From Bacilli bacterium (lineage in GTDB: Bacteria; Bacillota_I; Bacilli_A; RF39; UBA660), in contig JAFQTN010000002.1 in the NCBI GenBank assembly GCA_017409025.1, forward strand, positions 43,967 to 107,966: a stretch of DNA of 64,000 bases. The letters run 5' to 3'. The stretch's first letter is position 1; each line of letters begins with the position of its first letter. The notes beneath the pieces were generated by a model that did not search any database, was not told where the DNA came from, and worked only from the letters and a program-made list of their open reading frames with translations. Shown piece after piece: positions 392 to 52,456 of this stretch. Position numbers and translations under genes: made by a program.

Positions 392-1150
392 TTACTTCCT
401 ATCTATAATATTTGACTTATCAAAATACTGATTATATCCATTTTTTTCTATTAATTTAGCTAATTCATATCCACCAGTCTCACATATACATCCATTAATA
501 ATTACATGTACATAATCAGGCTCTAAATATTCAAGTAATTTAGGTAAATGAGTAATTATTAAAATTGAAGTATTAGGATTTTCTTTCTTATATGAAACTA
601 TATTTTCAGCAACTATTCTTACACTATCAACATCTAATCCAGAATCAAGTTCATCTAATATAATTAAACTAGGTTTTAATAATTTTAATTGTAAAACTTC
701 ATTTTTTTTCTTTTCTCCTCCAGAAAAGCCAACATTTAAAGATCTATGAATTAAACTCTTATCCATTTTAAGTTCTTCAATAGCATTTTCACATTTTAAA
801 ATAAAATCATAAAGCCCTACTTTTTTACCCATATGACTAGACATAGCAGTTCTTAAAAAATCTTGATTACTAACTCCATCTATCTCCATTGGATATTGCA
901 TCACTAAAAATATTCCTTTACGACTTCTCTCATCAGTAGTCATATCTTTAATTGATTCATCATTAAAAATAATATCACCATTATTTATAACATAATGATT
1001 ATCTCCCATTATTACTCTAGATAAAGTAGATTTACCAACACCATTAGGCCCCATAATAACATGTATACTTCCATCATCTATATCCAAATCAAAATTATTT
1101 AATACTTGTTTTTTATCTACTGATACATCTAAATTCTTAATTGATAACAT
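392..1150 (-). CDS. sufC: Fe-S cluster assembly ATPase SufC
   Basis: 252 aa. Walker A GPNGVGKST, ABC signature LSGGEKKK, Walker B ILDELDSGLD, and the characteristic SufC N-terminus MLSIKNLDVSVDKKQVL. Confidence 0.9.
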   Translation of the reverse strand: MLSIKNLDVSVDKKQVLNNFDLDIDDGSIHVIMGPNGVGKSTLSRVIMGDNHYVINNGDIIFNDESIKDMTTDERSRKGIFLVMQYPMEIDGVSNQDFLRTAMSSHMGKKVGLYDFILKCENAIEELKMDKSLIHRSLNVGFSGGEKKKNEVLQLKLLKPSLIILDELDSGLDVDSVRIVAENIVSYKKENPNTSILIITHLPKLLEYLEPDYVHVIINGCICETGGYELAKLIEKNGYNQYFDKSNIIDRK

Positions 1151-1221
1151 AAAATCACCTAACTTAATTATATCTCATAAACATATAAAAATAAAGATAA
1201 TTCTTCATATTAAAGAACTAT

Positions 1222-2238
1222 CTAATATAAGTATTTATCAATAAAAGAAGTCATTAAAGATAATTTTTTTACAGCTTCTCTTTTTATCTTACCAGTTCTC
1301 TGAGTTGAAATATTTAAAAATGATGCAATTTCTTCTAAATTATAACATACTCCATCTATTCCAATATATCTAGAAAGAACAGAAAATTGTCTTGAAGTTA
1401 AACGTTTCATAAGTTCTTCTTTTAATTGTTGTAACTCTAAATTACGTACACCATCTCTATATACATCTACATTACTATCTTCAATAATATCAATAATCTT
1501 AGTTTCAATATCATCAATATATAAATCTTCATCTAAAGAAATAGAATTATAAAAAGCTTTTTTTAATTGTTCTATTTTTTCTATAGATTCCCCCATATAT
1601 TTCGATAATTCACTGATAGTAACTTCTCTTCCTAATAATAAAGATAATTCATTAGCTTTTTCAATTACACTACAACCATCATAAAAAGTTTGTGAAGGAA
1701 TTCTATATGCTGAATTTGTTCCATTAGTATTTCTACTGATAAAATGCTTAATCCATAATCTAGCATAGGTACTAAAAGAAGCATCGTGTTCCAAACTATA
1801 TTTTTCAACAGCTCTAATAAGTCCTAAATTCCCATATTGAACCATATCTTCAAAAGAAAATAATGATGTTTCTCTATAACCCTTGGCAACTTCCATAACT
1901 AACCTTAAATTTCCTTCAATAATTTTAGAACTAACTTGCAAATAATTATTATATTCTTCTTTTAATTTCTCCAGTACTTCTTTATTTTGACAATTCTTTA
2001 AACAATATTCCATTTTATCAGAAATCCAAGGTACTATACATCCTTCAAATTTTGTATCATCACAACCCGCTTCTAAAAATAATCGATCTAATCTAGAAAT
2101 TATTTCACTGACTTCTATCAGAAGAACTCTATTCTTATCACTATCTAAACAAGGTACGGTATCAACATCGTTTGAATATAACTGATGCATAGAAAATTGA
2201 CCCAATTTTGTTTTACCTAAAGATGATTTACTCTCCAT
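1222..2238 (-). CDS. Divergent sigma-70 family RNA polymerase sigma factor. Regions 1.2, 2, 3 and 4 are present, preceded by a ~90-aa N-terminal extension.
   Basis: IIEGNLRLVMEVAKGYR...FEDMVQYGNLGLIRAVEKY...FSTYARLWIKHFISR matches region 2 (2.1-2.4). A C-terminal region 4 HTH is present (NLEEIASFLNISTQRTGKIKREAVKKL). It has its own TTGATT-17-TATATT promoter and a GGAGGGGG RBS at 2239-2320. Confidence 0.8.
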   Translation of the reverse strand: MESKSSLGKTKLGQFSMHQLYSNDVDTVPCLDSDKNRVLLIEVSEIISRLDRLFLEAGCDDTKFEGCIVPWISDKMEYCLKNCQNKEVLEKLKEEYNNYLQVSSKIIEGNLRLVMEVAKGYRETSLFSFEDMVQYGNLGLIRAVEKYSLEHDASFSTYARLWIKHFISRNTNGTNSAYRIPSQTFYDGCSVIEKANELSLLLGREVTISELSKYMGESIEKIEQLKKAFYNSISLDEDLYIDDIETKIIDIIEDSNVDVYRDGVRNLELQQLKEELMKRLTSRQFSVLSRYIGIDGVCYNLEEIASFLNISTQRTGKIKREAVKKLSLMTSFIDKYLY

Positions 2239-2325
2239 ATATATACCCCCTCCAAAAGGATTTTTAATATATCATAATATATTTTAAAAATCAAGTTTTT
2301 AGGAAAAGAAAAAAGTGCCTAAGCA

Positions 2326-4089
2326 CTAATTTATATACCATGTATTATCAATATCACAACTTTGACTAAGAGGAGTTGGTTCTGGCATATCAACCATAGT
2401 TAATATTGGAAATTTAAATGCTGTACCAAATAATACACAACCACCTGGATTTAAACACTTAACCCTTTGAATCAACCCTTCAGACATTCCACTTATTACG
2501 CTAGAAATAAATTCAATATCCCTAGGATGAAAAGTTCTAAAAACAGCAAAATTAGAACATTGAGATACCGCAGTTTCACTAAGTTCTGAAGGTCTTTGGC
2601 TTATCATTCCTAATAATATTCCATATTTTCTACCTTCTTTAGTAATTCTTTCAAATATATTATATCCAAGTATCTTCCTATCTATATCGTCTTGAACATA
2701 TCTATGAGCTTCTTCCAAAACAATATGAAAAGGCATAGAAGCTCTCTTAGAAAGTCTTACAACATAATCAAATATCATCTTGGAAAATATTTTTACAATT
2801 ACTTTAGCAAATCTATCATCTACATAATTAATATTAAAATCTATTATTTGACATTTTCCACCATTTGATGCAGTTAATAAATATTTAATATAATCTGTTT
2901 TATTCATATATTTATTACATTTAAAATAATTAACATAATCACTATTAATTAATGAATTAAGCCTAATCTTAAGTATATTAGCATATTCAAAAACTGTACT
3001 ATTACTAAATACACCTTCACTAATTAATGCAAACTCTAATGAAGTATAAAAATCATTTATAGTATACATATAACTACCATCAGGTAAAGACAATTCAAAA
3101 TTATCCTCACAATATTTTTCTAGATAATCAATAACGACTTCTATATCTGCAAACTTACCATCATTTCCTACATAAATACACTGTCTTAAAGTTCTAGTCC
3201 ATCCACCTTTAGTTAAATTAACTTCTAAATTAATCTCATCAGTATTAAACTTAGTCAAAACCGTAGTAATAGTATTTCTAATCTCATTAACACTATTAGA
3301 TGAAAATATAATATCTAATAAACATCTAGCTATAATATCATTTTTATGTTTTAATACGCTACTATTATTTTGAGAAAAGAAAGAAACCAACTTTAAAGCT
3401 TTTTCCACAATTGGTATTTGTCTAGCATCATCAACCTCTAAAAGTAAACAAATGTCATCCACTGACAACAACCAAAATGGTAACTTTAATTTATCATATC
3501 TGTCTTCCCTTAAATCAGTAGTTATAACTTTAAAATTCAAATTAGAATTTACTTTATTTATATTTTCAAATGCCTGTTGATATTCACCATAAGCATCAAA
3601 TAAGAATATATTAGGGTTAAATGGTAATCTTTTTGAATTATAAAATACACTTTGTAATAAACCAGCTACAAAATGACTTTTACCGCTTCCTGTATTACCC
3701 AATATGGAAAAATGAGATGAAAAGAAAGAATTTATATTCAAATAAACATCATAATCTTGATATAAACTAGACTTTCCAACTTTAACAATATTACTTTCCC
3801 TATCAATACCATATATAATATCTATTTCTTGTAATGTAGTAAGCCTACAACTAGCATTGAAAGGTGGCATATTGATACTACCAGAAACAAACCTATTATT
3901 AATTATTTCACCAATCAATCTTACTTCCATCATAGTGCCAGACATAGACATAACTTCTCCAATATACCTATCAGCAAAAGTAATATTCTTAGAAATTAAA
4001 TTATCACATTTATATATGTCCAAACTTAACTGGATATATATAATATAGTCCTTTATACTAACTATTTTCCCTATCATATTCTTCTTCAC
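2326..4089 (-). CDS. HerA-like (DUF87) P-loop ATPase with an N-terminal HAS-barrel
   Basis: 587 aa. Walker A GNTGSGKSHF and a HerA/FtsK-type Walker B HIVLEEAHRYV. The ~120-aa N-terminal beta-rich domain precedes the ATPase as in HerA. It lies between tRNA-Asn and the sigma-like gene. Confidence 0.65.
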   Translation of the reverse strand: MKKNMIGKIVSIKDYIIYIQLSLDIYKCDNLISKNITFADRYIGEVMSMSGTMMEVRLIGEIINNRFVSGSINMPPFNASCRLTTLQEIDIIYGIDRESNIVKVGKSSLYQDYDVYLNINSFFSSHFSILGNTGSGKSHFVAGLLQSVFYNSKRLPFNPNIFLFDAYGEYQQAFENINKVNSNLNFKVITTDLREDRYDKLKLPFWLLSVDDICLLLEVDDARQIPIVEKALKLVSFFSQNNSSVLKHKNDIIARCLLDIIFSSNSVNEIRNTITTVLTKFNTDEINLEVNLTKGGWTRTLRQCIYVGNDGKFADIEVVIDYLEKYCEDNFELSLPDGSYMYTINDFYTSLEFALISEGVFSNSTVFEYANILKIRLNSLINSDYVNYFKCNKYMNKTDYIKYLLTASNGGKCQIIDFNINYVDDRFAKVIVKIFSKMIFDYVVRLSKRASMPFHIVLEEAHRYVQDDIDRKILGYNIFERITKEGRKYGILLGMISQRPSELSETAVSQCSNFAVFRTFHPRDIEFISSVISGMSEGLIQRVKCLNPGGCVLFGTAFKFPILTMVDMPEPTPLSQSCDIDNTWYIN

Positions 4090-4177
4090 CTATTATAATT
4101 TTACCACTACAAATAAATTATTACAAGAAAAAGTGAATAGTATAAGTACCATTCACTTAATAGTTTGCGTAATCAAC

Positions 4178-4207
4178 AAAAAAATCTAGCATTGCTAGAT
4201 TTACAAA
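4178..4207 (-). terminator. Rho-independent terminator downstream of tRNA-Asn
   Basis: On the minus strand: AAATCTAGCA-atg-TGCTAGATTT followed by TTTTTTGTTG. Confidence 0.6.
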
Positions 4208-4213
4208 TCTAAA

Positions 4214-4289
4214 TGGCGCCTAATGTAGGACTCGAACCTACGACCTATCGGTTAACAGCCGAGTGCTCTACCGACTGAGCTAATTAGGC
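4214..4289 (-). tRNA. tRNA-Asn (anticodon GTT)
   Basis: Minus-strand sequence GCCTAATTAGCTCAGTCGGTAGAGCACTCGGCTGTTAACCGATAGGTCGTAGGTTCGAGTCCTACATTAGGCGCCA. The 7-bp acceptor stem GCCTAAT/ATTAGGC, the anticodon loop CTGTTAA, the T-loop GGTTCGAGTCC and a CCA end are all present. Confidence 0.9.
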
Positions 4290-4417
4290 ATCAATTTCGG
4301 ATTGCTAATTCATTATATAACAAAAATATTGAATTATCAACCCTTTTTTGTAATTTTTTTTACATTTTTTCCTATTTCTATACTTAATATATTCATTTTG
4401 CAAAAATATATACCTAA

Positions 4418-5905
4418 TTATTCCTTATTTATCTTAATATCATATACAGAAGGTCCATATATGATATTCCCATCTATATCAAATCTAGAAGCATGACAAG
4501 GACAATCCCAAGTTTTATCTATATAATTAAATACTAAATTACATTTCATATGAGGACATATATTAGAAACTATATGTTCAATACCTTTAATATCTTTATA
4601 TATACCACATTTCTTTCCATTAACATATTCTATTCTAACATCATCACCATAATAACTCTTATTAGAACTAATTTTATTTAATATATATCTACTACCTACT
4701 TCTATATTATATATAAATATATTCTTTATCTTATCGATAGATAATCCTCTTTTAGGATTAAATAAACCAATATATTTATTATCTTTATTATTTATAATAT
4801 CACTAATAACCATCCCACTAATCGTTCCATTAGTATTCCCCCATTTATTAAATCCAGTTGATATAAACAAATTATTATCTATTTTTCCTATAAAAGGTAA
4901 TCCATCATATGTCATTAAATCATGAGTATGATAAAAATATTCTAAATCTTTACCAAAATATTTCTTATATTCACCACTCAATTCCCTATAATCATCTCTA
5001 ATATCTAAATTAGTAGTAATACTATGATTTCTTCTTCCATATATTAAATAATTATCTATATCCTTATAACCTCTAATAGATATACTTCTCTTTCCCGTAG
5101 AAATCATCTGACTTGAAAGTTCCTTATCAAATTTTGCTGCTCCTATAAAAAATCTATCTACTCTAGTTTTAAAAGGAATAAAAAAAGGAACAATAAACAT
5201 CGGATAATGACAAGCTACTACTACAAATTTACTTCTAATTTTATATCCATCATTTACCTTACTAACATACATATCATTATCCTTATCAACTGATATACAT
5301 CTAGTATTTTCATATATATCTATCTTCTTACTAACTATATTTTTTAAACCTACTAAATATTCATATGGATTAAATACATAACTATCATCCCCCATCAAAG
5401 CATATTTACACGGATATTTTATTGGTAATCTATCTAATAATTTATACTTAATATTATATTTATTATAAAAATTAACTTCATCACTAAAGCTATTATAATC
5501 ATCACCAGTATAACTAAATACATAAGATTTAGTCTTAACTAAATGACAATCTATTTTATTCTTAGTTATAATTTCTTTTACTTTTTTAATCGCATCAAGC
5601 TGACTATCATAATATAATTTAGCAATATCACTATTATAATTTTTACTAAGTCTACTATAGATTAAATCTTGCATCCAAGTAAGTTTACCAGTATTTTTTG
5701 ATGTAGCCCCCATCCCACATATATCTCTTTCAATTAATACTACCTTCTTATCTGAATTCATCAAATTATAAGCAGTACTAAGACCAGCCATTCCTCCACC
5801 TATAATTAATACATCACAATTAATATCTTTATCCAATTTAGACATCTTCTCATTTTTAATATTGGAATTCATCCAAATACTTTTATTTTTCATCTTATTC
5901 ACCAT
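4418..5905 (-). CDS. FAD-dependent oxidoreductase with a C-terminal Rieske [2Fe-2S] domain
   Basis: 495 aa. N-terminal dinucleotide fold DVLIIGGGMAGLSTAY. C-terminal Rieske ligands CPHMKC...(17)...CPCHASRFD. Confidence 0.75.
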   Translation of the reverse strand: MVNKMKNKSIWMNSNIKNEKMSKLDKDINCDVLIIGGGMAGLSTAYNLMNSDKKVVLIERDICGMGATSKNTGKLTWMQDLIYSRLSKNYNSDIAKLYYDSQLDAIKKVKEIITKNKIDCHLVKTKSYVFSYTGDDYNSFSDEVNFYNKYNIKYKLLDRLPIKYPCKYALMGDDSYVFNPYEYLVGLKNIVSKKIDIYENTRCISVDKDNDMYVSKVNDGYKIRSKFVVVACHYPMFIVPFFIPFKTRVDRFFIGAAKFDKELSSQMISTGKRSISIRGYKDIDNYLIYGRRNHSITTNLDIRDDYRELSGEYKKYFGKDLEYFYHTHDLMTYDGLPFIGKIDNNLFISTGFNKWGNTNGTISGMVISDIINNKDNKYIGLFNPKRGLSIDKIKNIFIYNIEVGSRYILNKISSNKSYYGDDVRIEYVNGKKCGIYKDIKGIEHIVSNICPHMKCNLVFNYIDKTWDCPCHASRFDIDGNIIYGPSVYDIKINKE

Positions 5906-5988
5906 TATTAGTATGAATAAAACATAATATTTAATACAAAAAAAGATATTTAACCCAAAAGATTAAATATCTAAACATTTTTTATTAA

Positions 5989-6681
5989 TTAACAAACTCT
6001 AGTACCCTTATTACCATTATTATAAACATCAAGAAGACAGTCTTTTTCATTAATATTAGTAACAACTATAGATATATTATTATCACGGCACATCTCTATA
6101 GCTTCAAAATCCATTATACCAAGTTGTTTTTCTAATACTTCATCATAACTTACTTGTTGATATCTAATAGCATCATCATATTTATTCGGATCTTTATCAT
6201 ATACTCCATCTACATTAGTTAGTTTAACAATAACATTAGCACCAATGTCAATAGCTCTAAGTGAAGCCCCCGTATCCGTAGAAAAGAATGGTTTTCCAGT
6301 ACCTCCACCAAATATTACAATTTTACCATCAGCAATTGCTTTTCTAGCCTTATCAGGATCGATATCATCAATAGTTTTTACAGACAACCCAGTCTGATTG
6401 TAAACTTGACACCCTATTCTTGTAAAAGTATCTTTTAATACCAAACTGTTCATAACCGTAGCAAGCATTCCCGTATAATCAGCAGTTTCTCTATCCATCA
6501 AAGAGGCATCTCTACCACGCATAAAATTTCCACCACCACACACTATTCCAATACCTACACCTAAATCATGACATTCTTTTATTCTTAAACACAAATCTTC
6601 AATATAATCAAAATCAAGACCAGTTCCATATTTGCCAGACATTGCTTCGCCACTTAATTTAATAAGAAATACTTGTCCCAT
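5989..6681 (-). CDS. pyrH: UMP kinase
   Basis: 230 aa. LIKLSGEAMSG...GIVCGGGNFMRG...TGMLATVMNSL are the signature blocks of the UMP kinase amino-acid-kinase family. Confidence 0.9.
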   Translation of the reverse strand: MGQVFLIKLSGEAMSGKYGTGLDFDYIEDLCLRIKECHDLGVGIGIVCGGGNFMRGRDASLMDRETADYTGMLATVMNSLVLKDTFTRIGCQVYNQTGLSVKTIDDIDPDKARKAIADGKIVIFGGGTGKPFFSTDTGASLRAIDIGANVIVKLTNVDGVYDKDPNKYDDAIRYQQVSYDEVLEKQLGIMDFEAIEMCRDNNISIVVTNINEKDCLLDVYNNGNKGTRVC

Positions 6682-6690
6682 AAAACCTCC

Positions 6691-7596
6691 CTATATCTTT
6701 AAATACTTCTTAACGGCAGTTGAACTTCCGAACATACCTACTAATAATCCTATTATAAGTAAGATGCCCGCTCCATAAAAAATAAATGGATATGGACTTA
6801 CTAAAGAACCAAAAGATGCTGGAAATAAATTATTACCAAAATAATTAAAGAAAGTATTATATCCATATGCCATTAAAACTATAGGAATTATTGAACCTAA
6901 AATACCTATAAAAGAACCCTCGATTAAAAATGGTATCTTAATAGATATATTAGATGCACCTACTAATCTCATTATTTCTATTTCAGTTTTTCTAGAGAAA
7001 ATTGCTAACTTAATCGTATTAGATATTAAAAATGCTGTAACTAAAATTAAAGCAATTACTCCACCAATACATACTTTTTCTATTACATCAAAAATTTTAA
7101 TAACTGAATCAATATAATCTTCACCATAATTAATCGTATAAACAAAATTCATACCTTTAATCTTACTAGCAGTATCATCTATAAGTTCAATATCTTTAAC
7201 TGTTATTTCATAACTATCTAAAAGAGGAATAGATTCATCTGTCCAACTATCAACAATTAAAGAAAATCTATCATCAATTTCTTTAGTCTCTTCAGCATAT
7301 TCTTTCTTAGATTTAAATTTTATTTCATTAATATTATCTAACTTTCTTAATTCTGTTTCGAAAGACTCTTTATCATTCGTAGCATTAAATTCTTCCTTTA
7401 AGAATGCTACTATCGATATATTACTACTAACATGTTTTGTCATAGCATCTACATTAACAGATAATACAATCGATAAAGCTACTACTACTAAAGTAATGGT
7501 TATACATGAAATAGATGCTAAAGATAATGAAAAATTTCTAATTACACTTCGTAGAGCATCACGAAAATATCTATTTATACTTCTAAAGAACTTCAT
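6691..7596 (-). CDS. ftsX: Cell-division ABC transporter permease FtsX
   Basis: 301 aa with four TM segments. It overlaps the upstream ftsE stop by 14 nt, the classic ftsEX arrangement. Confidence 0.8.
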   Translation of the reverse strand: MKFFRSINRYFRDALRSVIRNFSLSLASISCITITLVVVALSIVLSVNVDAMTKHVSSNISIVAFLKEEFNATNDKESFETELRKLDNINEIKFKSKKEYAEETKEIDDRFSLIVDSWTDESIPLLDSYEITVKDIELIDDTASKIKGMNFVYTINYGEDYIDSVIKIFDVIEKVCIGGVIALILVTAFLISNTIKLAIFSRKTEIEIMRLVGASNISIKIPFLIEGSFIGILGSIIPIVLMAYGYNTFFNYFGNNLFPASFGSLVSPYPFIFYGAGILLIIGLLVGMFGSSTAVKKYLKI

Positions 7597-8293
7597 AATA
7601 TTTACCTCTTTCGTAATCTTGTACTATCTTACCCTCATTTAAAACAACTACTCTTTTCTTCATTTTATTAACGATATCTCTATTATGAGTAGTCATTACA
7701 ATTGTAGTTCCCATCTTATTAATATCCTCTAATACCTTCATAATTCCCATACTAGTATCCGGATCTAAATTACCCGTAGGTTCATCACAAATTAATAATT
7801 TAGGATTATTGACAATCGCTCTAGCTATAACAACTCTTTGTTGTTCTCCACCAGATAATTGATTAGGGTATTGTCTAACTTTTCCCTTTAGACCAACAAG
7901 TTCCAATACTTCCATAACACGATTATGAATCTTTTTCTTATCATAACTAAATACTTCCATTGCAAAAGCAACATTTTCATAAACTGTCATTCTAGGTAAT
8001 AACTTAAAGTCCTGAAATACTACCCCGATTTTTCTTCTAAGAATATATACTTTTCTATCTTTAAGTTTAGCAACATTAATACCACCTATCATAATAGAAC
8101 CCTTATCAGGTTTTTCTTCTCTATATAACATTTTTATTAATGTAGACTTTCCACTACCAGATGCACCAATTATAAAAACAAATTCACCTTTAGATATTGT
8201 TAAATCAACATCATATAAAGCTACAGTACCAGTTTTATACGTCTTTTGAACATCTGTCATTCTTATTAAATCCATTACTTCACCTCTTATCAA
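7583..8293 (-). CDS. ftsE: Cell-division ABC transporter ATP-binding protein FtsE
   Basis: 236 aa. Walker A GASGSGKST, signature LSGGEQQRVVIARA, Walker B LLICDEPTGNLD. Confidence 0.85.
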   Translation of the reverse strand: MIRGEVMDLIRMTDVQKTYKTGTVALYDVDLTISKGEFVFIIGASGSGKSTLIKMLYREEKPDKGSIMIGGINVAKLKDRKVYILRRKIGVVFQDFKLLPRMTVYENVAFAMEVFSYDKKKIHNRVMEVLELVGLKGKVRQYPNQLSGGEQQRVVIARAIVNNPKLLICDEPTGNLDPDTSMGIMKVLEDINKMGTTIVMTTHNRDIVNKMKKRVVVLNEGKIVQDYERGKYYEVL

Positions 8294-11283: not shown

Positions 11284-13005
11284 TCATTTTCTTGTTAAAC
11301 TATTTTCATCAGTTATTCCTAATTTCTTATCAATAAATTTTACTAATACATTAGTATTAACATCAAACAATTTTTCAAAATCTATAAATTTAATCTTAGC
11401 TTGAAAAGTTAATTTACCTTCATATATATCACTAAATATAATTGTCGTATCATTAAAATCCCTACCAATTAGAAATTCATAATTACCATGAGCTATTGAA
11501 TTTCTAATTCCTTCTATAATAGCTTTATTCTTAAAATACATCCTATTATTAGTAAAATCATCCTTAATAGAATTATATAAACTATATTGATTACTATAAT
11601 CTGTTATAAGACTAACTAAACTATTATTTAGACTAGCAATATTACTATTTATATTATTTATAGCAACTTGATTACCGCTAACCTTAGTTAAATTATTCCT
11701 CTGTTCAATAATTTTCTTACTAATCTTAACCTGTTTATTTACTATAGAATCTAACCCATTCTTAGCATCCAATAACGGTGTCTCATCAATATCAATATAA
11801 GTAACATCTAACATAGATAAATCTAACTTAGAAAAATCTAGCCCATCACTCCTATCTAGCTTATAACCTCCATCAATATCATAAATATCATCAAAAGGAT
11901 ATATAAAAAATGAATTAAACATAGATATTAATAAAATACCATATTCATCATAATAAAATCTCATTTCATTACCATCTGTTATATTGTCAGTAACATATTG
12001 GCTAAGCTCCCTAGTATCAGTAGTATTCTTTTTATATAAAGCATCTAACATTATTAAATGTTTAATATTTGAAGCTATTGGATTAAAGTTATTAAGATTA
12101 GGATTTATCTTTCTATGAAATTCTAATCCTATACCTTCTATTTGACTATGCAAATTTCCATTAGAATCACCAAGTATTTCTGGTTTTAATAATTCTAATA
12201 TCTCATTTACATCATTAGGATCTGTCAACCTTTTACTCTCGATTGTCAATTTACAATTATTCTTTTCAAAATATCTACACATTCTCTTATAATAATCACT
12301 ATTTTTATAAGTATTAAAATTATAATTTACATAATGAATTAATTCTTCAACCATCGCTAATAAATCATCAGTTAATATTTTTCCATCTAAAGACTCTAAT
12401 TTAAAACTAATATGTTCAAACCCCTTTATTACTCTTTTAATTTCCCCAGGAGTTTTTAATGGTTCTTTTCTATTAGCAACCATCATATCAGTAAAAGATA
12501 CCATATCTCTTTCATATTTAGTAGTCTTAACATCACCAATAGTCATTCTTAGTGCATTAGCAATAAATGTAGAAAGTTTATATACAGATAATATAATATC
12601 ATTTCCCTGATGATTTATAATTACTCTCCCATGTTCAAAGTCTATTTTAAAATTACCATGCGCCATCTTATTTCTAATAATAGCAACCAAAGTTTCAGCA
12701 TCTGGAAAAATATAATCACCTATCTTATACCCATTACTTACTTTAGTAGCAATATATGAAACACCATCCTCTAAAGCATTAATAAATACTTTAGATTGAT
12801 AATTTCTCTCACCTAAATTTTCTACCAAATCTTCTTTTACCCCCAACATTATATTAGAAATAATTGCTATTTTAGCTCCTATTATATTTTTCTTATCTAA
12901 TATAAATTGCTGTAAAGATTCATTATTATAATATTTACCAAACCAAAACAAATAATATGCTTTAGTAGCAGTCATATAATCTTTTATAGAACTTAATTTA
13001 TCCAT
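11284..13005 (-). CDS. Hypothetical protein with two predicted HEPN-type active-site motifs (RNxxAHGN[F/Y]) placed near the N- and C-termini, a twin-HEPN putative RNase
   Basis: 573 aa. AIIRNKMAHGNFKIDF (R111/H116, nt 12658..12675) and GIRNSIAHGNYEFLIG (R501/H506, nt 11488..11505). Both fit the HEPN Rx4-6H consensus and resemble the RNLCAH motif in the Abi_2 protein at 46892..47827. The region between them is alpha-helical. Confidence 0.5.
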   Translation of the reverse strand: MDKLSSIKDYMTATKAYYLFWFGKYYNNESLQQFILDKKNIIGAKIAIISNIMLGVKEDLVENLGERNYQSKVFINALEDGVSYIATKVSNGYKIGDYIFPDAETLVAIIRNKMAHGNFKIDFEHGRVIINHQGNDIILSVYKLSTFIANALRMTIGDVKTTKYERDMVSFTDMMVANRKEPLKTPGEIKRVIKGFEHISFKLESLDGKILTDDLLAMVEELIHYVNYNFNTYKNSDYYKRMCRYFEKNNCKLTIESKRLTDPNDVNEILELLKPEILGDSNGNLHSQIEGIGLEFHRKINPNLNNFNPIASNIKHLIMLDALYKKNTTDTRELSQYVTDNITDGNEMRFYYDEYGILLISMFNSFFIYPFDDIYDIDGGYKLDRSDGLDFSKLDLSMLDVTYIDIDETPLLDAKNGLDSIVNKQVKISKKIIEQRNNLTKVSGNQVAINNINSNIASLNNSLVSLITDYSNQYSLYNSIKDDFTNNRMYFKNKAIIEGIRNSIAHGNYEFLIGRDFNDTTIIFSDIYEGKLTFQAKIKFIDFEKLFDVNTNVLVKFIDKKLGITDENSLTRK

Positions 13006-13052: not shown

Positions 13053-15257
13053 CTATTCTTCTTCATCACTAGGCTTTTCTAATTTAACTAATACTTCTCT
13101 AGGCTTAGAACCATTAGCTGGACCTATTATTCCTCTTTCTTCAAGTAAATCTATTATTCTAGCTGCTCTATTATAACCAAGTCTAAACTTTCTTTGAACC
13201 AATGAAGCACTAATCTTACCAGCACTAACAGCAAAGTCAACTACTTCATTATATATTGGATCATCATATTCTTCTTCTGAAGAATAACCATCACTACCAC
13301 TAGATACTGACGTACTGCCACTCTTATCAACAGTTAAGCTCTCGTCATATACAGCCTTTTGTTGACCAATTGAATAATCTACTAATTTTTGAATTTCTTC
13401 TTCAGACACATAAGCACCTTGAATTCTCATTGGAATACTCTCACCCATTGGTAAAAATAACATATCACCTTTACCAAGTAACTTTTCAGCTCCACCCATA
13501 TCTAAAATCGTTCTAGAATCAATTTGTGAAGAAACTGCAAAACTAACTCTTGAAGGAATATTTGCTTTAACAACACCAGTAATAATATCAGTAGATGGTC
13601 TTTGAGTAGCAACAATTAAATGTATCCCAGCAGCACGAGCCATCTGAGTAATTCTCATAATAGAATCTTCTACTTCTTTAGCAGCTACTAACATTAAATC
13701 TGCAAGTTCATCTATAATTACCACTATATAAGGTAATTTCTTATATTCAGTATGAGTCTCACAATATTTATTATAAGAAACTATATTCTTATTTTTAGTA
13801 TGTTCTAATAACTCATATCTTCTTTCCATTTCTGCTACTATATTCTTAAGAGCTATTGAAGCTTTCTTAGCATCAGTAACAACCGGACTAAGTAAATGAG
13901 GTATTCCATTATACATTGAAAACTCTACTTTCTTAGGGTCTACTAATACTAACTTAACTTGATCAGGCTTACATCTCATAAGTATTGAAGCAATAATACA
14001 GTTAATACATACTGATTTACCACTACCAGTAGAACCTGCTACTAACATATGAGGTGTCGTATTAATTTCACACCACTTTACTTTACCCATAATATCTTTA
14101 CCAAGTCCAACAGCAAGTATTGTCTTTTCATTAACTTCAGGCATACTACTTAAAACTTCCTTAAACGATACACTAGCATTTACCTTATTAGGTAGTTCTA
14201 TACCAATAGTATTTTTACCAGGTATCGGAGCCTGTATTCTAACATCTTTAGCAGCCATCGCTAAAGCAATCTCCCTTTGAATACCCAATAACTTATTAAC
14301 TTTAGTACCAGCCTTTAAATCAAGTTCATATTGAGTAACTGTAGGTCCAATATTAACCTGAACAATCTTACCAGATATTTCAAATACTCTTAAAACATCT
14401 TCTAACTTAGTAATATTTGCCTTAGCATTCATTTCATTCTCTTTACTATTAACATTTTTAACAGTCTTAAGCATATTAATTGATGGCAATTTATATTCAC
14501 CATTATTAATAACTACTTCTTCTTTCTTGTCAATATCAGTATCTTCTATTTTTCTAATAGGAATATCTACATCTACTTCTTCTTTCTTTTCTACCTTAAC
14601 TTCTTCTTTCTTAGAAGTAAGTTCCTCTATCGAAGATATAACTATTCTCTTATCATCAGTTTCTTCTGAAGAAGTAACTTCATCTTTATCAACTTTCTTT
14701 TCCTTATCAATTTTAGGTAATTTAATTTTAGAAAACACACTAACTAAAGAAGTATTAAATACTAAAACAAGACCCAAAACTATAAGTGTGATAATAACAA
14801 TTATTACTCCATCAGCAAAAGCCCAATTAAATATATACATTAAAATTGAACCTATCATTCCACCACCACAGTGCTGAATCAAATCTGTTGACTTAAATGC
14901 TAACATAACATTCTTAAATGTCTCAATTATTATATCTGTACCACTAAACTTTTTAACATATTCCATATGAATTAAAGTAAGAATAGCCATAACAATCAAA
15001 TATAGTCCGATTGACATTCTTGATATAAATTTAGGATTCTTCCTTTTAACTATTAAATAAAGACCTAATAGTAAAAAAACTACTAGCAAAGGAAAATAAG
15101 CTACACCAACCAAAAAAACAGAAAAACTTCTAATAAAATTTCCAGCTACACCATAACCTAACATTCCAATAATTGAAAGTAAAACAAATAATACTCCAAT
15201 TACTTCATTACTATATTCAAACTTTTCTTTCTCTTTCTTTTGTTTTTTCTTTGCCAT
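13053..15257 (-). CDS. ftsK: DNA translocase FtsK/SpoIIIE
   Basis: 734 aa. N-terminal TM segments, an acidic linker, Walker A GSTGSGKSVCIN, Walker B VVIIDELADLM, and a C-terminal gamma wHTH domain (LVQRKFRLGYNRAARIIDLLEERGIIG). Confidence 0.9.
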   Translation of the reverse strand: MAKKKQKKEKEKFEYSNEVIGVLFVLLSIIGMLGYGVAGNFIRSFSVFLVGVAYFPLLVVFLLLGLYLIVKRKNPKFISRMSIGLYLIVMAILTLIHMEYVKKFSGTDIIIETFKNVMLAFKSTDLIQHCGGGMIGSILMYIFNWAFADGVIIVIITLIVLGLVLVFNTSLVSVFSKIKLPKIDKEKKVDKDEVTSSEETDDKRIVISSIEELTSKKEEVKVEKKEEVDVDIPIRKIEDTDIDKKEEVVINNGEYKLPSINMLKTVKNVNSKENEMNAKANITKLEDVLRVFEISGKIVQVNIGPTVTQYELDLKAGTKVNKLLGIQREIALAMAAKDVRIQAPIPGKNTIGIELPNKVNASVSFKEVLSSMPEVNEKTILAVGLGKDIMGKVKWCEINTTPHMLVAGSTGSGKSVCINCIIASILMRCKPDQVKLVLVDPKKVEFSMYNGIPHLLSPVVTDAKKASIALKNIVAEMERRYELLEHTKNKNIVSYNKYCETHTEYKKLPYIVVIIDELADLMLVAAKEVEDSIMRITQMARAAGIHLIVATQRPSTDIITGVVKANIPSRVSFAVSSQIDSRTILDMGGAEKLLGKGDMLFLPMGESIPMRIQGAYVSEEEIQKLVDYSIGQQKAVYDESLTVDKSGSTSVSSGSDGYSSEEEYDDPIYNEVVDFAVSAGKISASLVQRKFRLGYNRAARIIDLLEERGIIGPANGSKPREVLVKLEKPSDEEE

Positions 15258-15344: not shown

Positions 15345-17129
15345 CTATTTGTTTATAAACTTATCTACTTTTTCTAGCAATATTTCTTTTTTAACAGGTT
15401 TCATTATATAATCATCAAACCCTTCATTTTTATATTCATCACTATACTCATATTTACTATCCTTAGTAAGTAATATAACCGGTATATTAAAATTTCTTAT
15501 TTCCCTAAATTTAGAAAGTAGCTCCACCCCAGAAATCCCGGATAACTTTTCATCTAGTAATATAATGTCATATTTATTCTTACTCTTTATTTTATCAATA
15601 GCATCTTTACCAGTATTTACTGAATCAATAATAACATTGCTATCTTTAAGCACCTTTTCCACTATCTTAATACCAGCAGCACTATCATCTATAACTAAAA
15701 TTTTCTTATTTTCATAAATTTCATTATACTTACTCAAAGTTTTAAATTCTACTTTTTCCATCTTTTGATCAAGTATTATTTTAAACTTATTACCAACCAT
15801 ATAATTTGGAAGTATCATCATCGTACCATCCATTAAAATAATTGTCTTATAAGCTACAGAAATTTCTTTATCCTCTAACTTAATTTTCTCTACCATATCA
15901 CTCTTCATACCATTACTAGAGTCCTCAATAGAAATAATTAATCTACAAATATTCCCCTTCATAATAGTATTTATATCTAACTCTACATATCCCTTACTAG
16001 TAACCCCAACACAATATTTCAATATAGAAGTTAGTGATTTTTTCATACCAATAGAATCCCCATATAAATAATCTGGTATATTATGTTCAATATTAGTCCT
16101 AAAAGTAATTCCTTTTTTCTTACAAATATCATTATACATACTAACAACTTCTTTTAAGATAGTCTTAATATTATATTTACTATTATACACCTTTATATTG
16201 GCAGAATCTATCTTAGAAACATCTAATATATCATTAGTCATACTAACAAATTTAGCAGTTTCCCCTTTAATATTTCTAGCACTATTTCTATTTTCTTCTA
16301 AAGAATCACTCTCTAAAATTACATCTGTCTCAAAATTTATCTTATTAGTAGTATCTTTAATTTCCTGAGTCATATTATATAAAAATAACATTTTCTCTTC
16401 ATTAACATTATCACTTATCTCTTTAGCCTTATGCATCTCTTCTAATACATTTGTATCAGGATTCTCTATCGTAAAATACATTAAGTAACATAAAATTACA
16501 AGTACAAAATCATATAAAATTATCCCTGCAAAAAACAAAGTAACCACATAACTTATAATCATTGCAATAAAAATTAAAATAATTGGTAAATACCTTCTAT
16601 CAATCTTTTTAGAATTAATAATTGTTATTATCATCGAAGCTGTTAAATAAAGTGCAATCATCGAATAGCCTATCATTATAGTACCACCAGTAACATTCGA
16701 AGCTGTCTTAGCATTAGTAATACTTATCGTAGTAAACATTAAACTAACTAATGATATTATATTCAAAATCGATATCGAATATCTTAATTTCTTATTCTTT
16801 AAAGCATTTTTTCCATAAGTAATAACCATTACATATAAGAATAAACATTCAAATATCATAACAAAAAATATTACTATAAATTTATTAACAACATTAAAAA
16901 AATCATATAAAGGATATGCATTTATTAATTCAAAAGGATTAAATGAACATATCAAATGAACAATAAAATCTAAAAATATTTCCCCAAGAGATGCTAATAA
17001 TATTATTTTAAATAATTTATTTTGAGTTAAATTAACATTAGGCTTTGAATAATATATAAATAAAAGCATTAAAATTAATAATAAACACACCAAAGGTATC
17101 TCGAATTCCATTGTATATAACATAAACAA
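15345..17129 (-). CDS. Hybrid sensor histidine kinase fused to a response-regulator receiver domain
   Basis: 594 aa. About six N-terminal TM helices, a HisKA/HATPase core, and a C-terminal receiver (KILVIDDSAAGIKIVEKVL...IILLDEKLSGISGVELL...KP). Confidence 0.75.
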   Translation of the reverse strand: MFMLYTMEFEIPLVCLLLILMLLFIYYSKPNVNLTQNKLFKIILLASLGEIFLDFIVHLICSFNPFELINAYPLYDFFNVVNKFIVIFFVMIFECLFLYVMVITYGKNALKNKKLRYSISILNIISLVSLMFTTISITNAKTASNVTGGTIMIGYSMIALYLTASMIITIINSKKIDRRYLPIILIFIAMIISYVVTLFFAGIILYDFVLVILCYLMYFTIENPDTNVLEEMHKAKEISDNVNEEKMLFLYNMTQEIKDTTNKINFETDVILESDSLEENRNSARNIKGETAKFVSMTNDILDVSKIDSANIKVYNSKYNIKTILKEVVSMYNDICKKKGITFRTNIEHNIPDYLYGDSIGMKKSLTSILKYCVGVTSKGYVELDINTIMKGNICRLIISIEDSSNGMKSDMVEKIKLEDKEISVAYKTIILMDGTMMILPNYMVGNKFKIILDQKMEKVEFKTLSKYNEIYENKKILVIDDSAAGIKIVEKVLKDSNVIIDSVNTGKDAIDKIKSKNKYDIILLDEKLSGISGVELLSKFREIRNFNIPVILLTKDSKYEYSDEYKNEGFDDYIMKPVKKEILLEKVDKFINK

Positions 17130-17184: not shown

Positions 17185-19476
17185 TTACTTTCCTTTAACT
17201 CTTTTTCTTACTTTAGTATGCTTGTTTTTTAATCTTTCATAATTTTCATCAATATATTTAACTATATTATATCTTTCATCTCTTTGATATCTGCGAAGCA
17301 TTGGTTCTGATAATTGACTAGCTAGTTCAACTAACTTATCACGAGATAATTCATCTACAAAAGAATAAACATCTGATTCATCTACTTCTTTTTTAGCTCT
17401 TACCCCAATTTCTTCTTTTGCAAATGGTTTAGACCAATATTGTCCCCAATATTCGTCTGCTACACTCTCCATATATGCTATATGTTGTTCATATGGTAAA
17501 TTATGTGTCTTACCATATCCTTCTATTTCTATAGTTTCTATCGGTTTAGAATGTTTAGACATTTGTTTAAAATGCATCGAAGCTAAAGTATCCCTAATTA
17601 ATTCATTAGACTTCTTCTCATCATACTTACTAATATCAATTGCATTCCCATATCTAACATATATTTTTTTATCTTCTTTTACAAGATACAAACTAACAGG
17701 AACAATTTCTACACCTTTTTCTTTAGCAGTTCTATAAGGACCAGAAAAAGATAATGGTTGTAACTCATTTTCACTATTTTCCCAACTACCAGAAACATAA
17801 TTTATAAAATTAGTTCCATAATCTATTATTCTATTTTGTTTACTAACACAATCTCTTCTACTAATATCATCCATTCTATCAACATGGAAAAAACCTAACA
17901 TTAAAGCTGCCAATAATAAAGGATTATTTTCAATCTGATCAGTAGTCCCCATAAGCATATATGCTTGTCTATCCAAAGAAGCAAACATCCCAATAGCATC
18001 TTCAGTAAAATAATGTGTTGGAACAAATATATACTGTTTCGTAGAATCTAACTCTGCCCTATCTTCGATAACAAGTTTATTCTTCATCGCATTACGAACT
18101 ATAAATCTCATAAAAGGATTTATCTTTTTTCTAAAATTAACACCCTTTAAAGAAGTAAAATTCTCAACATCAGCCCACAGTTTTTTTCTTATAAGCCACG
18201 AATTTCTTGGAATAGGTTTTCCTATCATTTTTGCCTTTTCACGTATATGTAAATCAGCATCCTTATTAATTTCATCTATCATTTCATTAGCCATTTTTTT
18301 TGAATAAACTCTTCTAATATCATCATTTAATTTTCTAATATTTGCTTTAAATATTCTAATATATTCTTCGTATATTCTCATTTCAAAAACATTTTGTTGT
18401 TCTTTAGTCATTTTATAATACTGAGATCTAGCTTTATCTCTATCTTCATAACTAGAATAAAATTTAATATCAAAAATATCTAAATCCTCAGGTTTATATA
18501 AACTATAAATTCTTTCTAACTCTAAATCATGTTTTCTTAAATATTTATTATTAATAGCCATTTTGTCTATAAGTTTAGATGTTTTCTTATCTAAAACAGA
18601 AACAATTTCACTATACATCCCGTCTGAATATATTTTCTTAAAATTATCCTTTAAACAAACTATCTCTTCCTTAAATTCGGATATCCATTTATCATAACTA
18701 TCAATTTCTAAATTACTATATTTTACTACTAAATCATCTATTAATTTAATACTTTGAGAATAATATATTTTTTTACCATATTTATCTAATAATTTATCAA
18801 ATTTACTATATAAACTCTCAATATATTTCTCAGCTGATGAAACCGAATAATTACCTCTATATCTATCACATAATTCTTCTACTTTTACTTTAAATGATTT
18901 TACATATTCAGCATATTCATCCATATCCATGCTAGAATCAGGATTAAATTCATTGAAAAATCCTACTGTAGAAGCAGAATATCCATCAAAAGATATCCTC
19001 TTTGCAATTTTCATTTTATTAGAAACACTATCTATTGTTTTAGAAACCAATTCATCTACTTTTTTCAAACGTTTTCCATCAGTAGGTTCACTTATTAAAA
19101 TAATATCTTTAATTTTTCTAACATTCTCTCTTAATCTTTTTATCTTGTTTACCCGAACATCATTATTAACATAAGCATTTAATATTTGATAATGTCTATT
19201 CAACAAAATTTCTATTTCTATATCATTTCTCTTTTTAACTACTTTTCTAAAATATTTATCAATTTCTTTATCTTTTTTATGATTAAATGTTTCTTTTAAT
19301 TTTTCTAAAGCCATTGAAAAATTTTTAAAATATTCTAAAAATTTATCCTCAAAAAAAACACTATCTATGTCTTTTTTTAAATATACATAAGGATCATACA
19401 TATTAATATCTTCAATTTTAGATAATACTATTTCCATATAATCGTCTCCCTTTTTGACCAAATATATTACTCCCAT
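17185..19476 (-). CDS. Large hypothetical protein with a C-terminal PlsC/LPLAT-like acyltransferase domain
   Basis: 763 aa. The N-terminal ~470 aa is charged and helical with no recognised domain. The C-terminal part has an HxxxxD motif (VPTHYFTED, around nt 18000..18015) and an FPEGTR-like block FSGPYRT (domain approx nt 17646..18039). Confidence 0.4.
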   Translation of the reverse strand: MGVIYLVKKGDDYMEIVLSKIEDINMYDPYVYLKKDIDSVFFEDKFLEYFKNFSMALEKLKETFNHKKDKEIDKYFRKVVKKRNDIEIEILLNRHYQILNAYVNNDVRVNKIKRLRENVRKIKDIILISEPTDGKRLKKVDELVSKTIDSVSNKMKIAKRISFDGYSASTVGFFNEFNPDSSMDMDEYAEYVKSFKVKVEELCDRYRGNYSVSSAEKYIESLYSKFDKLLDKYGKKIYYSQSIKLIDDLVVKYSNLEIDSYDKWISEFKEEIVCLKDNFKKIYSDGMYSEIVSVLDKKTSKLIDKMAINNKYLRKHDLELERIYSLYKPEDLDIFDIKFYSSYEDRDKARSQYYKMTKEQQNVFEMRIYEEYIRIFKANIRKLNDDIRRVYSKKMANEMIDEINKDADLHIREKAKMIGKPIPRNSWLIRKKLWADVENFTSLKGVNFRKKINPFMRFIVRNAMKNKLVIEDRAELDSTKQYIFVPTHYFTEDAIGMFASLDRQAYMLMGTTDQIENNPLLLAALMLGFFHVDRMDDISRRDCVSKQNRIIDYGTNFINYVSGSWENSENELQPLSFSGPYRTAKEKGVEIVPVSLYLVKEDKKIYVRYGNAIDISKYDEKKSNELIRDTLASMHFKQMSKHSKPIETIEIEGYGKTHNLPYEQHIAYMESVADEYWGQYWSKPFAKEEIGVRAKKEVDESDVYSFVDELSRDKLVELASQLSEPMLRRYQRDERYNIVKYIDENYERLKNKHTKVRKRVKGK

Positions 19477-51754: not shown

Positions 51755-52456
51755 ATGCTATTAAATATTATAAATTATATAGTGGGAAATTTAATGTTCT
51801 TTACCGGAGCCTATTCAAATAATGTATTCCCAGAGCAACTTCCACAAGATTTAGAACTAGAGTATATTAAAAAAGCAAAAAACGGTGATAAAGAAGCCAG
51901 AAATAAATTAATTGAACATAATCTTCGTTTAGTAGCTCATATTGTAAAAAAATTTGAAGCAACAGGCCATGATATAGACGATTTAATAGGAATAGGAACG
52001 GTAGGATTAATAAAAGGAATAGATACATATTCAGATAATAAAAAGGTAAAACTTGCTACATATGCTGCTAAATGTGCCGAAAATGAAATCTTAATGTATT
52101 TTAGACAAGACAAAAAAAATAGTAAAAATATAAGTATCTATGAAGAAATTAGTTTTGATAAAGAAGGAAATAAAATTACTATCTTAGATATCCTTAAAAC
52201 ACCAGACCCAGATTTTATAGAAAATATATATGTAAATGATAATATTAAACTATTACAAAAATATATTAATGTTTTAACAGAAAGAGAAAGAGAAATAATT
52301 GAATGTCGTTATGGATTAGGAGATAAAGAAGAAGAAACTCAAAAAGATATAGCTAAAAGATTAAATATCTCTAGAAGTTATGTATCTAGATTAGAAAAAA
52401 GAGCTACTACTAAAATATTAAGAGAGTTCATCAAAAACCAAAAAAGACAAAATTAG
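51755..52456 (+). CDS. sigK: Sporulation sigma factor SigK (pro-sigma-K), intact
   Basis: 233 aa. The pro-sequence ends ...[51 protein letters not shown] matches B. subtilis SigK ([31 protein letters not shown]...LIKGIESYS). Region 4 is [21 protein letters not shown]. Confidence 0.85.
   Translation: [233 protein letters not shown]

Follow-up and report, generated by a model that had tools for sequence, protein, structure and literature searches.

In a 64,000-nucleotide stretch of contig JAFQTN010000002.1 from a Bacilli bacterium (the window), a gene for a HerA-family ATPase is followed by a gene for a sigma-70-family protein, and we propose that the two are probably independent neighbours with different histories, namely a dispensable alternative sigma factor beside an ancestral HerA that has no partner. 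Read along the minus strand, tRNA-Asn is followed by the HerA-like open reading frame (ORF), the sigma-like ORF and sufC (Table 1), and the source record, a 'Bacilli bacterium' metagenome-assembled genome (MAG), labels the two proteins 'ATP-binding protein' (MBQ2872577.1) and 'sigma-70 family RNA polymerase sigma factor' (MBQ2872576.1). A preliminary description of this DNA had placed all of these features correctly, including the tRNA gene upstream of and adjoining the ATPase gene. It had suggested that the two genes form a pair inserted between tRNA-Asn and the suf genes, with independent neighbours as a fallback. The insertion holds for the sigma gene, but not for HerA, which is ancestral at this site, and the fallback is the best fit, given the separate terminators, the separate sigma promoter and the occurrence of HerA without the sigma gene.

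A HerA-sigma functional module or defence pairing is not supported, given the wider distribution of HerA and the terminator hairpin that lies between the two genes. We retrieved 80 reference HerA loci, whose proteins are 41-68% identical to the window HerA, and in all 80 the 15-kb stretch around HerA lacks the sigma gene. The gene is also absent from L001, L003, L009, L015, L211 and L213 (WIN denotes this window and L### the retrieved related loci), and HerA is intact in L213 although the sigma gene has been deleted there. All co-occurrences of HerA and the sigma gene go back to one insertion in a single clade and thus amount to one event only. A HerA-sigma pairing was unreported in our literature searches.

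The HerA-like ORF spans 2326-4089 and, as described previously, encodes 587 amino acids from a GTG start; however, since an AGGTGA ribosome-binding site precedes the ATG at position 4077 and the annotated homologues have 583 residues, this ATG is probably the real start. In the 583-residue numbering, the Walker A motif GNTGSGKS and the Walker B motif VLEEAH, both already recognised in the preliminary description, occupy residues 127-134 and 453-458 and are invariant in 40 homologues. The protein matches Pfam PF01935 (DUF87/HerA central domain) with 89.7 bits against a cut-off of 23.2, and its best PADLOC model is the HerA model PDLC04102 (364 bits). The predicted structure is of moderate quality, with a mean predicted local distance difference test score (pLDDT) of 67.8. 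The proposed N-terminal HAS-barrel is plausible, given beta strands over residues 2-65 and Foldseek matches to HerA along the full length (600-650 aligned columns), but these strands are predicted with a pLDDT of only 45-63. Assignment to the FtsK/SpoIIIE or conjugation (VirB4/TraG-like) ATPases was rejected, as PF01580 (FtsK_SpoIIIE) stayed below its threshold (22 against 24 bits) and no transfer genes lie nearby.

By sequence and predicted fold, HerA is closest to the motor subunits of SIR2-HerA and DUF4297-HerA, which agrees with the earlier view of an anti-phage type rather than a NurA-repair or conjugation type. Its nearest annotated homologues are the SIR2-linked plasmid HerA proteins of Listeria and Enterococcus, which are overlapped by SIR2 and are 34% identical over 92% of the length. 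The best Foldseek match is the DUF4297-HerA structure 8xav (E = 3e-20), and the Sir2-HerA chains 8j4u, 8uae and 8sub are also among the top matches. Unlike the HerA of SIR2-HerA (Nezha), the window protein is encoded on the chromosome amid housekeeping genes and is vertically inherited, its alignment with the plasmid proteins leaves out the first ~45 residues, and its upstream and downstream neighbours are tRNA-Asn and the sigma gene rather than SIR2. It scores 166 bits against NCBIfam HerA_antiphage (NF042943, cut-off 800) and 155 bits against HerA_antiphage_2 (NF042944, cut-off 850), and a DUF4297 (Cap4-like nuclease) neighbour is likewise missing. With the NurA-HerA pair, which resects double-strand breaks in archaea and Deinococcus-Thermus, it shares the superfamily and the state of a fixed, vertically inherited chromosomal gene, but it reaches only 94 of the 970 bits required by the repair HerA model NF040819, and repair HerA is absent from the top 50 structural matches. 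SIR2, DUF4297 and NurA were all absent from the neighbours of HerA in 88 related loci (for NurA, adjacent genes only; unlinked NurA was not searched for).

More than 8000 HerA homologues were found, and the best 120 matches are 64-78% identical to the window protein and 580-598 residues long, except for one truncated match of 549 residues. A scan of genome contigs with the single protein returned nothing; its alignment-based repeat, a profile-guided scan with one genome per species, placed relatives in at least 226 species-level genomes. The HerA-bearing MAGs, which we take to belong to the GTDB order RF39, are labelled Bacilli, Firmicutes CAG:321, Clostridium CAG:914, Candidatus Coprosoma, Candidatus Faecisoma, Tenericutes or Mollicutes in the 80 reference loci, all of which derive from gut, rumen or sediment; Candidatus Coprosoma and Candidatus Faecisoma are incertae sedis in the NCBI taxonomy. 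Our literature searches returned no report of HerA in RF39 or Mollicutes-like MAGs.

Genes were called in the 88 HerA loci, clustered, and named by sequence or Pfam. No neighbour is universally conserved across the HerA family; instead, HerA is surrounded by housekeeping genes that change stepwise with its divergence. At HerA identities of at least 64%, tRNA-Asn lies upstream and sufCBSU downstream; yqeG-yqeH is found upstream at 45-48%, sepF-divIVA downstream at 42-47% and ftsY-x-ylxM upstream at 41-43%, with htpG, RNase Y, valS and others as neighbours at scattered identities. Within the subclade of at least 64% identity, tRNA-Asn is the conserved left neighbour, for instance in L001, L003-5, L009 and L015. 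Candidates for hidden effectors were also tried. The Pfam-matched genes abutting HerA downstream encode pyruvate:ferredoxin oxidoreductase (PFOR), lactate dehydrogenase (LDH), a signal peptidase and a hydrolase, and upstream genes of 300-640 codons encode an AI-2E transporter, a histidine kinase, an M16 peptidase, RNase HIII, BipA and leucine-rich repeat (LRR)/adhesin-like proteins; these were dismissed. Several of the flanking candidates tested had no Pfam match. Proteins with a prepilin-type N-terminus adjoin HerA in several distant loci (L032:6496-6924, L085:3880-4423, L019:8831-9796, L077:8872-10017, L078:8769-9923 and L087:1837-2994), which may be fortuitous or may hint weakly at a connection with competence or pilus genes.

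The ratio of nonsynonymous to synonymous substitution rates (dN/dS) of HerA is 0.11-0.21, also between sigma-bearing genomes, and that of sufC is close to it (0.07-0.20). Such values are typical of a vertically inherited, constrained gene rather than mobile cargo. In this lineage it stands without a partner gene and is under strong purifying selection, and it is ancestral at the tRNA-Asn/HerA/sufCBSU site rather than inserted there. Based on its distribution, we favour a fixed chromosomal role for HerA in DNA processing or, in a domesticated form, surveillance that would not require an adjacent effector. The protein presumably forms a hexameric, ATP-driven ring that translocates DNA.

The sigma protein exceeds the Pfam cut-offs for region 2 (PF04542, 44.8 against 24 bits), region 3 (PF04539, 28.9 against 25.3) and region 4 (PF04545, 31.8 against 24.1), in agreement with the complete regions 2-4 described earlier, as well as that of the NCBIfam sigma-70 superfamily model TIGR02937 (61.9 against 42.9). 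It consists of a region 1.2-like helix (residues ~20-57), a linker, region 2 (101-172), region 3 (182-256) and region 4 (276-327). Region 1.1 is lacking, and region 1.2 (PF00140) was not detected by Pfam. The N-terminal ~90 residues had been regarded as an unusual extension, possibly with an effector or sensor domain. However, residues 28-342 of the sigma-family profile align in one stretch to residues 82-413 of Thermus SigA, starting at region 1.2, and the motif around Y21/D24 is aligned with DSVRAYLKQIG of mycobacterial SigA. In addition, the structural model (pLDDT 75.9, with confident helices at 34-56, 72-82 and 86-109) superposes over ~350 columns on a Thermus sigma-A chain with 346 modelled residues. 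The extension appears, on this basis, to be region 1.2 plus a short linker and to contain no new domain.

The best solved relative of the protein is B. subtilis SigA (7ckq_F, 182 bits), and the apparent order of regions 1.2-2-3-4 and the superposition on sigma-A are shared with the group 1/2 sigma-70 factors (SigA/RpoD, RpoS-like). It differs from these by the missing region 1.1, by its scores against the RpoD equivalog TIGR02393 (131 against 354) and PRK09210 (104.7 against 572), and by a rate of change 2-5 times that of its flanks. Because the equivalog scores lie far below the cut-offs and the gene is absent from close relatives, a primary sigma factor (RpoD/SigA, group 1) was rejected; for the same absence it is not a core sigma factor fixed at this position in all relatives. 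In our own residue mapping, Y425, W433 and Q437 of E. coli sigma-70 are replaced by A, L and H, and in region 4.2 R584, E585 and R588 are replaced by T, Q and G. The region 2 core QYGNxGL...TY..WIKQ (core binding and -10) is kept in nearly all of 12 copies, with single substitutions in four. We consider it probable that the protein is an accessory alternative sigma factor with its own housekeeping-type promoter. With its conserved region 2 binding core RNA polymerase, it would steer transcription towards a small regulon that differs from species to species, and its specificity probably changes with the variable helix of region 4.2. A second small sigma-70-family ORF in the window (51755-52456, plus strand, 233 residues) has regions 2 and 4 only and is unrelated to this family.

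Word-indexed searches returned only 3 and then 7 relatives of the sigma protein, and scans of JGI metagenomes and IMG/VR found nothing beyond generic sigma-70 for this family. Two arbitrarily chosen HerA relatives (75% and 73% identity), however, both had divergent sigma genes in the same slot, and searching 1.84 billion representatives exhaustively with HMMER yielded ~50 full-length clusters at 50% identity, with 225-499 bits; below these, generic sigma-70 proteins match just the C-terminal two-thirds of the profile. These results refute extreme rarity, the low count from the word-indexed searches being due to the divergence of the family. F, Y, M, I, N and K are abundant in all ~50 clusters, as in proteins of AT-rich genomes and in the window protein, and the median pairwise identity of the clusters is 32%. 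In 13 of 13 readable contexts the slot between HerA and sufC holds sigma, as one gene or a tandem pair, so that HerA and this sigma family are syntenic. Type S is a single gene of 338-350 codons (WIN, L006, L007, L202), types A and B form a tandem pair of ~390 codons each (L008, L200, L201, L203-206), and type D is a single gene of 397 codons (L207-210). The region 4.2 helix reads SPQRVGQLK or STQRTGKIK in type S, SRERVRQIE in type A, SSQRVHQIK in type B and SKQCVEQDL in type D. The A and B paralogues (L008:186-2561, L200:3040-5418, L201:82-2438, L203:6965-9325) are 33-36% identical to each other and carry ~50-60 additional N-terminal residues that are absent from type S. In L200 the downstream copy is broken into pieces of 230 and 160 residues; as the coverage of this contig is only 1.9x, the break probably stems from misassembly.

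The sigma types are only 27-36% identical to one another, with HerA at 73-84% and SufC at 83-88% in the flanks. The dS of the sigma gene (0.6-0.8) is similar to that of the flanks, which means that the gene has co-diverged with them and has been inherited vertically, not by repeated transfer. Its dN/dS is 0.2-0.8, 2-5 times that of the flanks, and in most comparisons with WIN region 2 has a lower value than the remaining regions. The rapid change may stem from selection driven by conflict or from the weak constraint to be expected of a dispensable regulator, two cases that a gene-wide dN/dS below 1 does not tell apart. The sigma gene may have originated by duplication of the host sigA or by transfer; all sigma factors outside the family are ~30-35% identical and come from many phyla. 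Rapidly evolving sigma loci were not reported in the literature we searched. Elsewhere in the slot's flanks, sufC is 79-89% identical across the clade and is followed by SUFBD, SufS and NifU in related loci; in L007 (2233-2991) it is split into 84 and 165 residues by an internal stop or frameshift, probably a sequencing error.

The anatomy of the slot suggests how the sigma gene arrived. The hairpin over the HerA stop codon (2314-2327) is present in the type S loci L006 and L007 and persists in the deletion scar of L213, and a different hairpin occupies this position in types A/B and D. The -35 (CTTGaTTTTT) and -10 (TTATGATATAgTA) blocks of the sigma promoter are invariant in WIN, L006, L007 and L008 and recognisable in L200 and L207, that is, conserved in types S and A and recognisable in D. 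The promoter TTGATT-17-TATATT noted previously, at 2294-2266, carries a TG extension. Promoter-like matches occur in this AT-rich region about as often as expected by chance (27 against 28.3), but this one is kept in four orthologous loci. The 3' arm and T-tract of the sigma terminator, GAATTATCTTTATTTTT, precede sufC at filled and empty sites alike (L006-8, L012, L015, L200, L203, L207), and at never-occupied sites such as L015 this arm belongs to the single HerA terminator. From this identity of the 3' arm with the empty-site terminator we infer that the cassette was inserted between the HerA stop codon and HerA's own terminator. The putative sufC -10 box TATAAT is conserved in 13 loci, whether the slot is occupied or not.

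The cassette, consisting of a terminator, a promoter with TG-extended -10 and the sigma gene, probably entered the slot once, in the ancestor of the subclade in which HerA is roughly at least 71-73% identical to the window protein. Since its arrival, the family has diversified into four or more types (S, A, B and D) and has undergone tandem duplication (A and B), deletion leaving a scar, and replacement by unrelated cargo. In a neighbour-joining tree of HerA, the sigma-negative L003, L211 and L213 are nested among sigma-positive loci, and the deeper branches L001, L009, L012 and L015 all lack sigma. The empty spacer of L213 (5750-5841, 92 nt) consists of slot positions 1-42 joined to 1132-1181. 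With about 1.09 kb removed, the left terminator and the sigma -35 now abut the tail of the right terminator and the promoter of sufC. The slot of L211 is also empty. The HerA proteins of L003 and L004 do not differ, and the DNA of the two contigs agrees at 99.7% of positions from tRNA-Asn until 39 nt beyond the HerA stop codon; from there on, the contigs carry unrelated genes (L003, 7752-8869; L004, 4091-5061). This shows strain-level turnover at the HerA-sufC slot. The cargo of L003 is a 326-residue protein with a weak match to PADLOC PDC-M03A (40.6 bits), for which homology to the sigma protein was ruled out by comparison. According to one paper, PDC-M03 is a HipA and HIRAN pair without a HerA component. 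L004 carries a 138-residue protein with two transmembrane segments and an opposite-strand transglutaminase-core protein.

Several points weigh against two independent neighbours. The sigma family has so far been seen beside HerA only, which leaves a small probability of a functional tie. The closest characterised relatives of HerA are immune motors, and together with the PDC-M03A-like cargo of L003 this means that the neighbourhood could be conflict-related. Transcription may also read through the terminator hairpins. The HerA tree is a neighbour-joining tree without support values, dN/dS was estimated with the NG86 method, which is crude at a dS of 0.6-1.6 and a genome GC content of ~25%, and 13 sigma contexts were read, with about 45 further family clusters outside that set. 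The survey for HerA partners covered neighbourhoods, with unlinked SIR2, DUF4297, NurA and the primary rpoD outside it. Finally, whereas the anatomy, the phylogenetic distribution, the evolutionary rates and the signals of the transcription units are direct results, we infer the regulon and the role of HerA, and, from conserved motifs only, sigma activity and promoter specificity.

Among the alternatives, we consider it unlikely that the sigma cassette is a conflict element that acts independently of HerA, either as a decoy or back-up against phage anti-sigma factors and hijackers or as a phage-derived, moron-like gene. Its self-contained terminator-promoter-gene-terminator layout resembles that of phage morons, its best PHROG match is the phage sigma family phrog_351 (126.7 bits), and extreme divergence, variation of the region 4.2 helix by type, tandem duplication, loss, replacement and a slot that differs between near-identical strains would fit such an element. 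Yet IMG/VR and GenBank phages yield at most about 37% identity, which is generic sigma-70 similarity, no phage or mobility genes are adjacent, and the GC content is that of the host. The dS shared with the flanks points to vertical inheritance, and with a gene-wide dN/dS below 1 positive selection is not demonstrated.

A broader version seems to us rather improbable. Here, the cassette would be an immune-type module, either a sigma-A-like decoy or back-up or a switch triggered by infection, which diversifies against anti-sigma and hijacking proteins of phages and perhaps cooperates with a domesticated HerA, and the slot would be a HerA-anchored defence hotspot. The described anti-phage system MZA contains a sigma-70-family protein, MzaA, which is the sole PADLOC match of the window sigma. 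This match (NF041931, 113.9 against 800 bits) covers generic sigma regions only, and MzaA is ~700 residues long with a large N-terminal part. MzaB-E are absent from the locus, where the neighbours are HerA and sufC.

It is more doubtful still that HerA and sigma form a two-gene HerA system in which sigma takes the place of SIR2 or DUF4297 and provides the output, for example as a transcription switch once HerA senses foreign DNA. All 13 located sigma genes lie immediately 3' of HerA and share its strand, HerA belongs to the anti-phage type, sigma evolves rapidly, like many conflict genes, and MzaA provides a sigma-like precedent, albeit by a weak, generic match. But with one insertion in one clade and conserved synteny, sufC is equally 'linked' to HerA, and HerA is kept without sigma in the reference loci and close relatives and stays intact where sigma is deleted or replaced. 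Its dN/dS is low even between sigma-bearing genomes. A hairpin and a conserved promoter separate the genes, and sigma has a terminator of its own. Moreover, the known effectors of HerA systems are encoded upstream of, and overlap, HerA, and the sigma protein has no extra domain.

We think it quite improbable that sigma is a decaying duplicate under relaxed selection with no current function. The elevated dN/dS, the loss in some lineages and the replacement of the melting residue W433 of E. coli sigma-70 by L or Y in our mapping would agree with decay. Against this, the ORFs are intact at almost every locus (the split copy in L200 aside), ~50 full-length clusters exist, dN/dS is below 1 throughout and lower in region 2 in most WIN comparisons, the core-binding motif is found in nearly all copies, and the promoter is conserved.

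An acquired island of HerA and sigma integrated at tRNA-Asn is scarcely credible: although the pair lies beside a tRNA gene and the genes between tRNA and HerA vary among relatives, no repeat of the tRNA-Asn 3' end was found in the 64-kb window with up to 3 mismatches allowed, GC content is flat (0.23-0.30) across the tRNA-HerA-sigma-sufC region, the ORFs from 392 to 8293 that Pfam or visible homology could name include no integrase, and HerA, which is widespread in the lineage, holds this position down to 64% identity, with only sigma variably present. The island reading thus fails, even though both gaps flanking HerA take up variable genes.

The gap between tRNA-Asn and HerA is occupied in L003-5, L015 and L211, where the genes encode a 639-residue LRR protein, proteins of 122 and 360 residues without assignment, and a 192-residue opposite-strand zinc-ribbon protein (L003:3939-5858, L015:5190-6937, L211:3260-3838). 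In the window, positions 4131-4202 of this gap hold two stable hairpins with U-tracts, of which the one at 4131-4158 may be a relic of earlier cargo.

Taken together, neither gene fits SIR2-HerA, DUF4297-HerA, NurA-HerA, MZA or the primary sigma factors, and both are clear members of their superfamilies. Treating them as independent neighbours averts a misleading annotation as an unsupported HerA-sigma defence system. HerA of the anti-phage type is usually viewed as the motor of mobile two-gene systems, but here it is fixed, partnerless and conserved in gut bacteria with reduced genomes. It is therefore either active without an effector or domesticated, and either case bears on the origin of SIR2-HerA-type systems. 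An identity of ~30% between species, with flanks at 73-88%, is unusual for a transcription initiation factor, and the slot with its duplication, loss and replacement offers a tractable case for studying sigma factors in genetic conflict. The word-indexed search under-counted this divergent family about ten-fold, and rarity judged from that tool alone would mislead.

Table 1. Features between tRNA-Asn and sufC, in minus-strand order
Feature	Coordinates	Strand	Basis
tRNA-Asn (GTT)	4214..4289	-	ARAGORN; Rfam tRNA, 73.6 bits
Terminator-like hairpin with U-tract, directly 3' of tRNA-Asn	4182..4202	-	-8.8 kcal/mol, z = -4.0
Second terminator-like hairpin with U-tract, tRNA-Asn/HerA gap	4131..4158	-	-12.8 kcal/mol, z = -6.4
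Putative HerA promoter TTGTAA-17-TAAAAT, TG extension, 3' of both hairpins	4098..4126	-	Consensus match
HerA-family ATPase, 583 aa	2326..4077	-	Pfam DUF87, PADLOC HerA model, Foldseek
Intrinsic-terminator-like hairpin AGUGC-UUAG-GCACU with U-tract, over the HerA stop codon	2314..2327	-	-6.3 kcal/mol, z = -3.6
Sigma promoter, -35 TTGATT, 17-nt spacer, TG-extended -10 TATATT	2266..2294	-	Scan and conservation
Sigma-70-family protein, 338 aa, type S	1222..2238	-	Pfam regions 2, 3 and 4
Terminator hairpin with U-tract, 3' of the sigma gene	1187..1223	-	-11.6 kcal/mol, z = -3.8
-10 box TATAAT, putative sufC promoter	1167..1172	-	Comparison of 13 loci
sufC (ABC ATPase), first gene of sufCBSU, right flank of the slot	392..1150	-	Pfam ABC_tran

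Scanning for terminators gave 4 sites where 0.4 would be expected, and Rfam matched only the two tRNAs. Elsewhere in the window, a genuine FtsK with alpha and gamma domains is encoded at 13053-15257. Three large minus-strand ORFs lie next to it (11284-13005, 15345-17129 and 17185-19476); two of these (573 and 763 residues) have no Pfam match, and the one of 594 residues has a C-terminal response-regulator receiver domain only.

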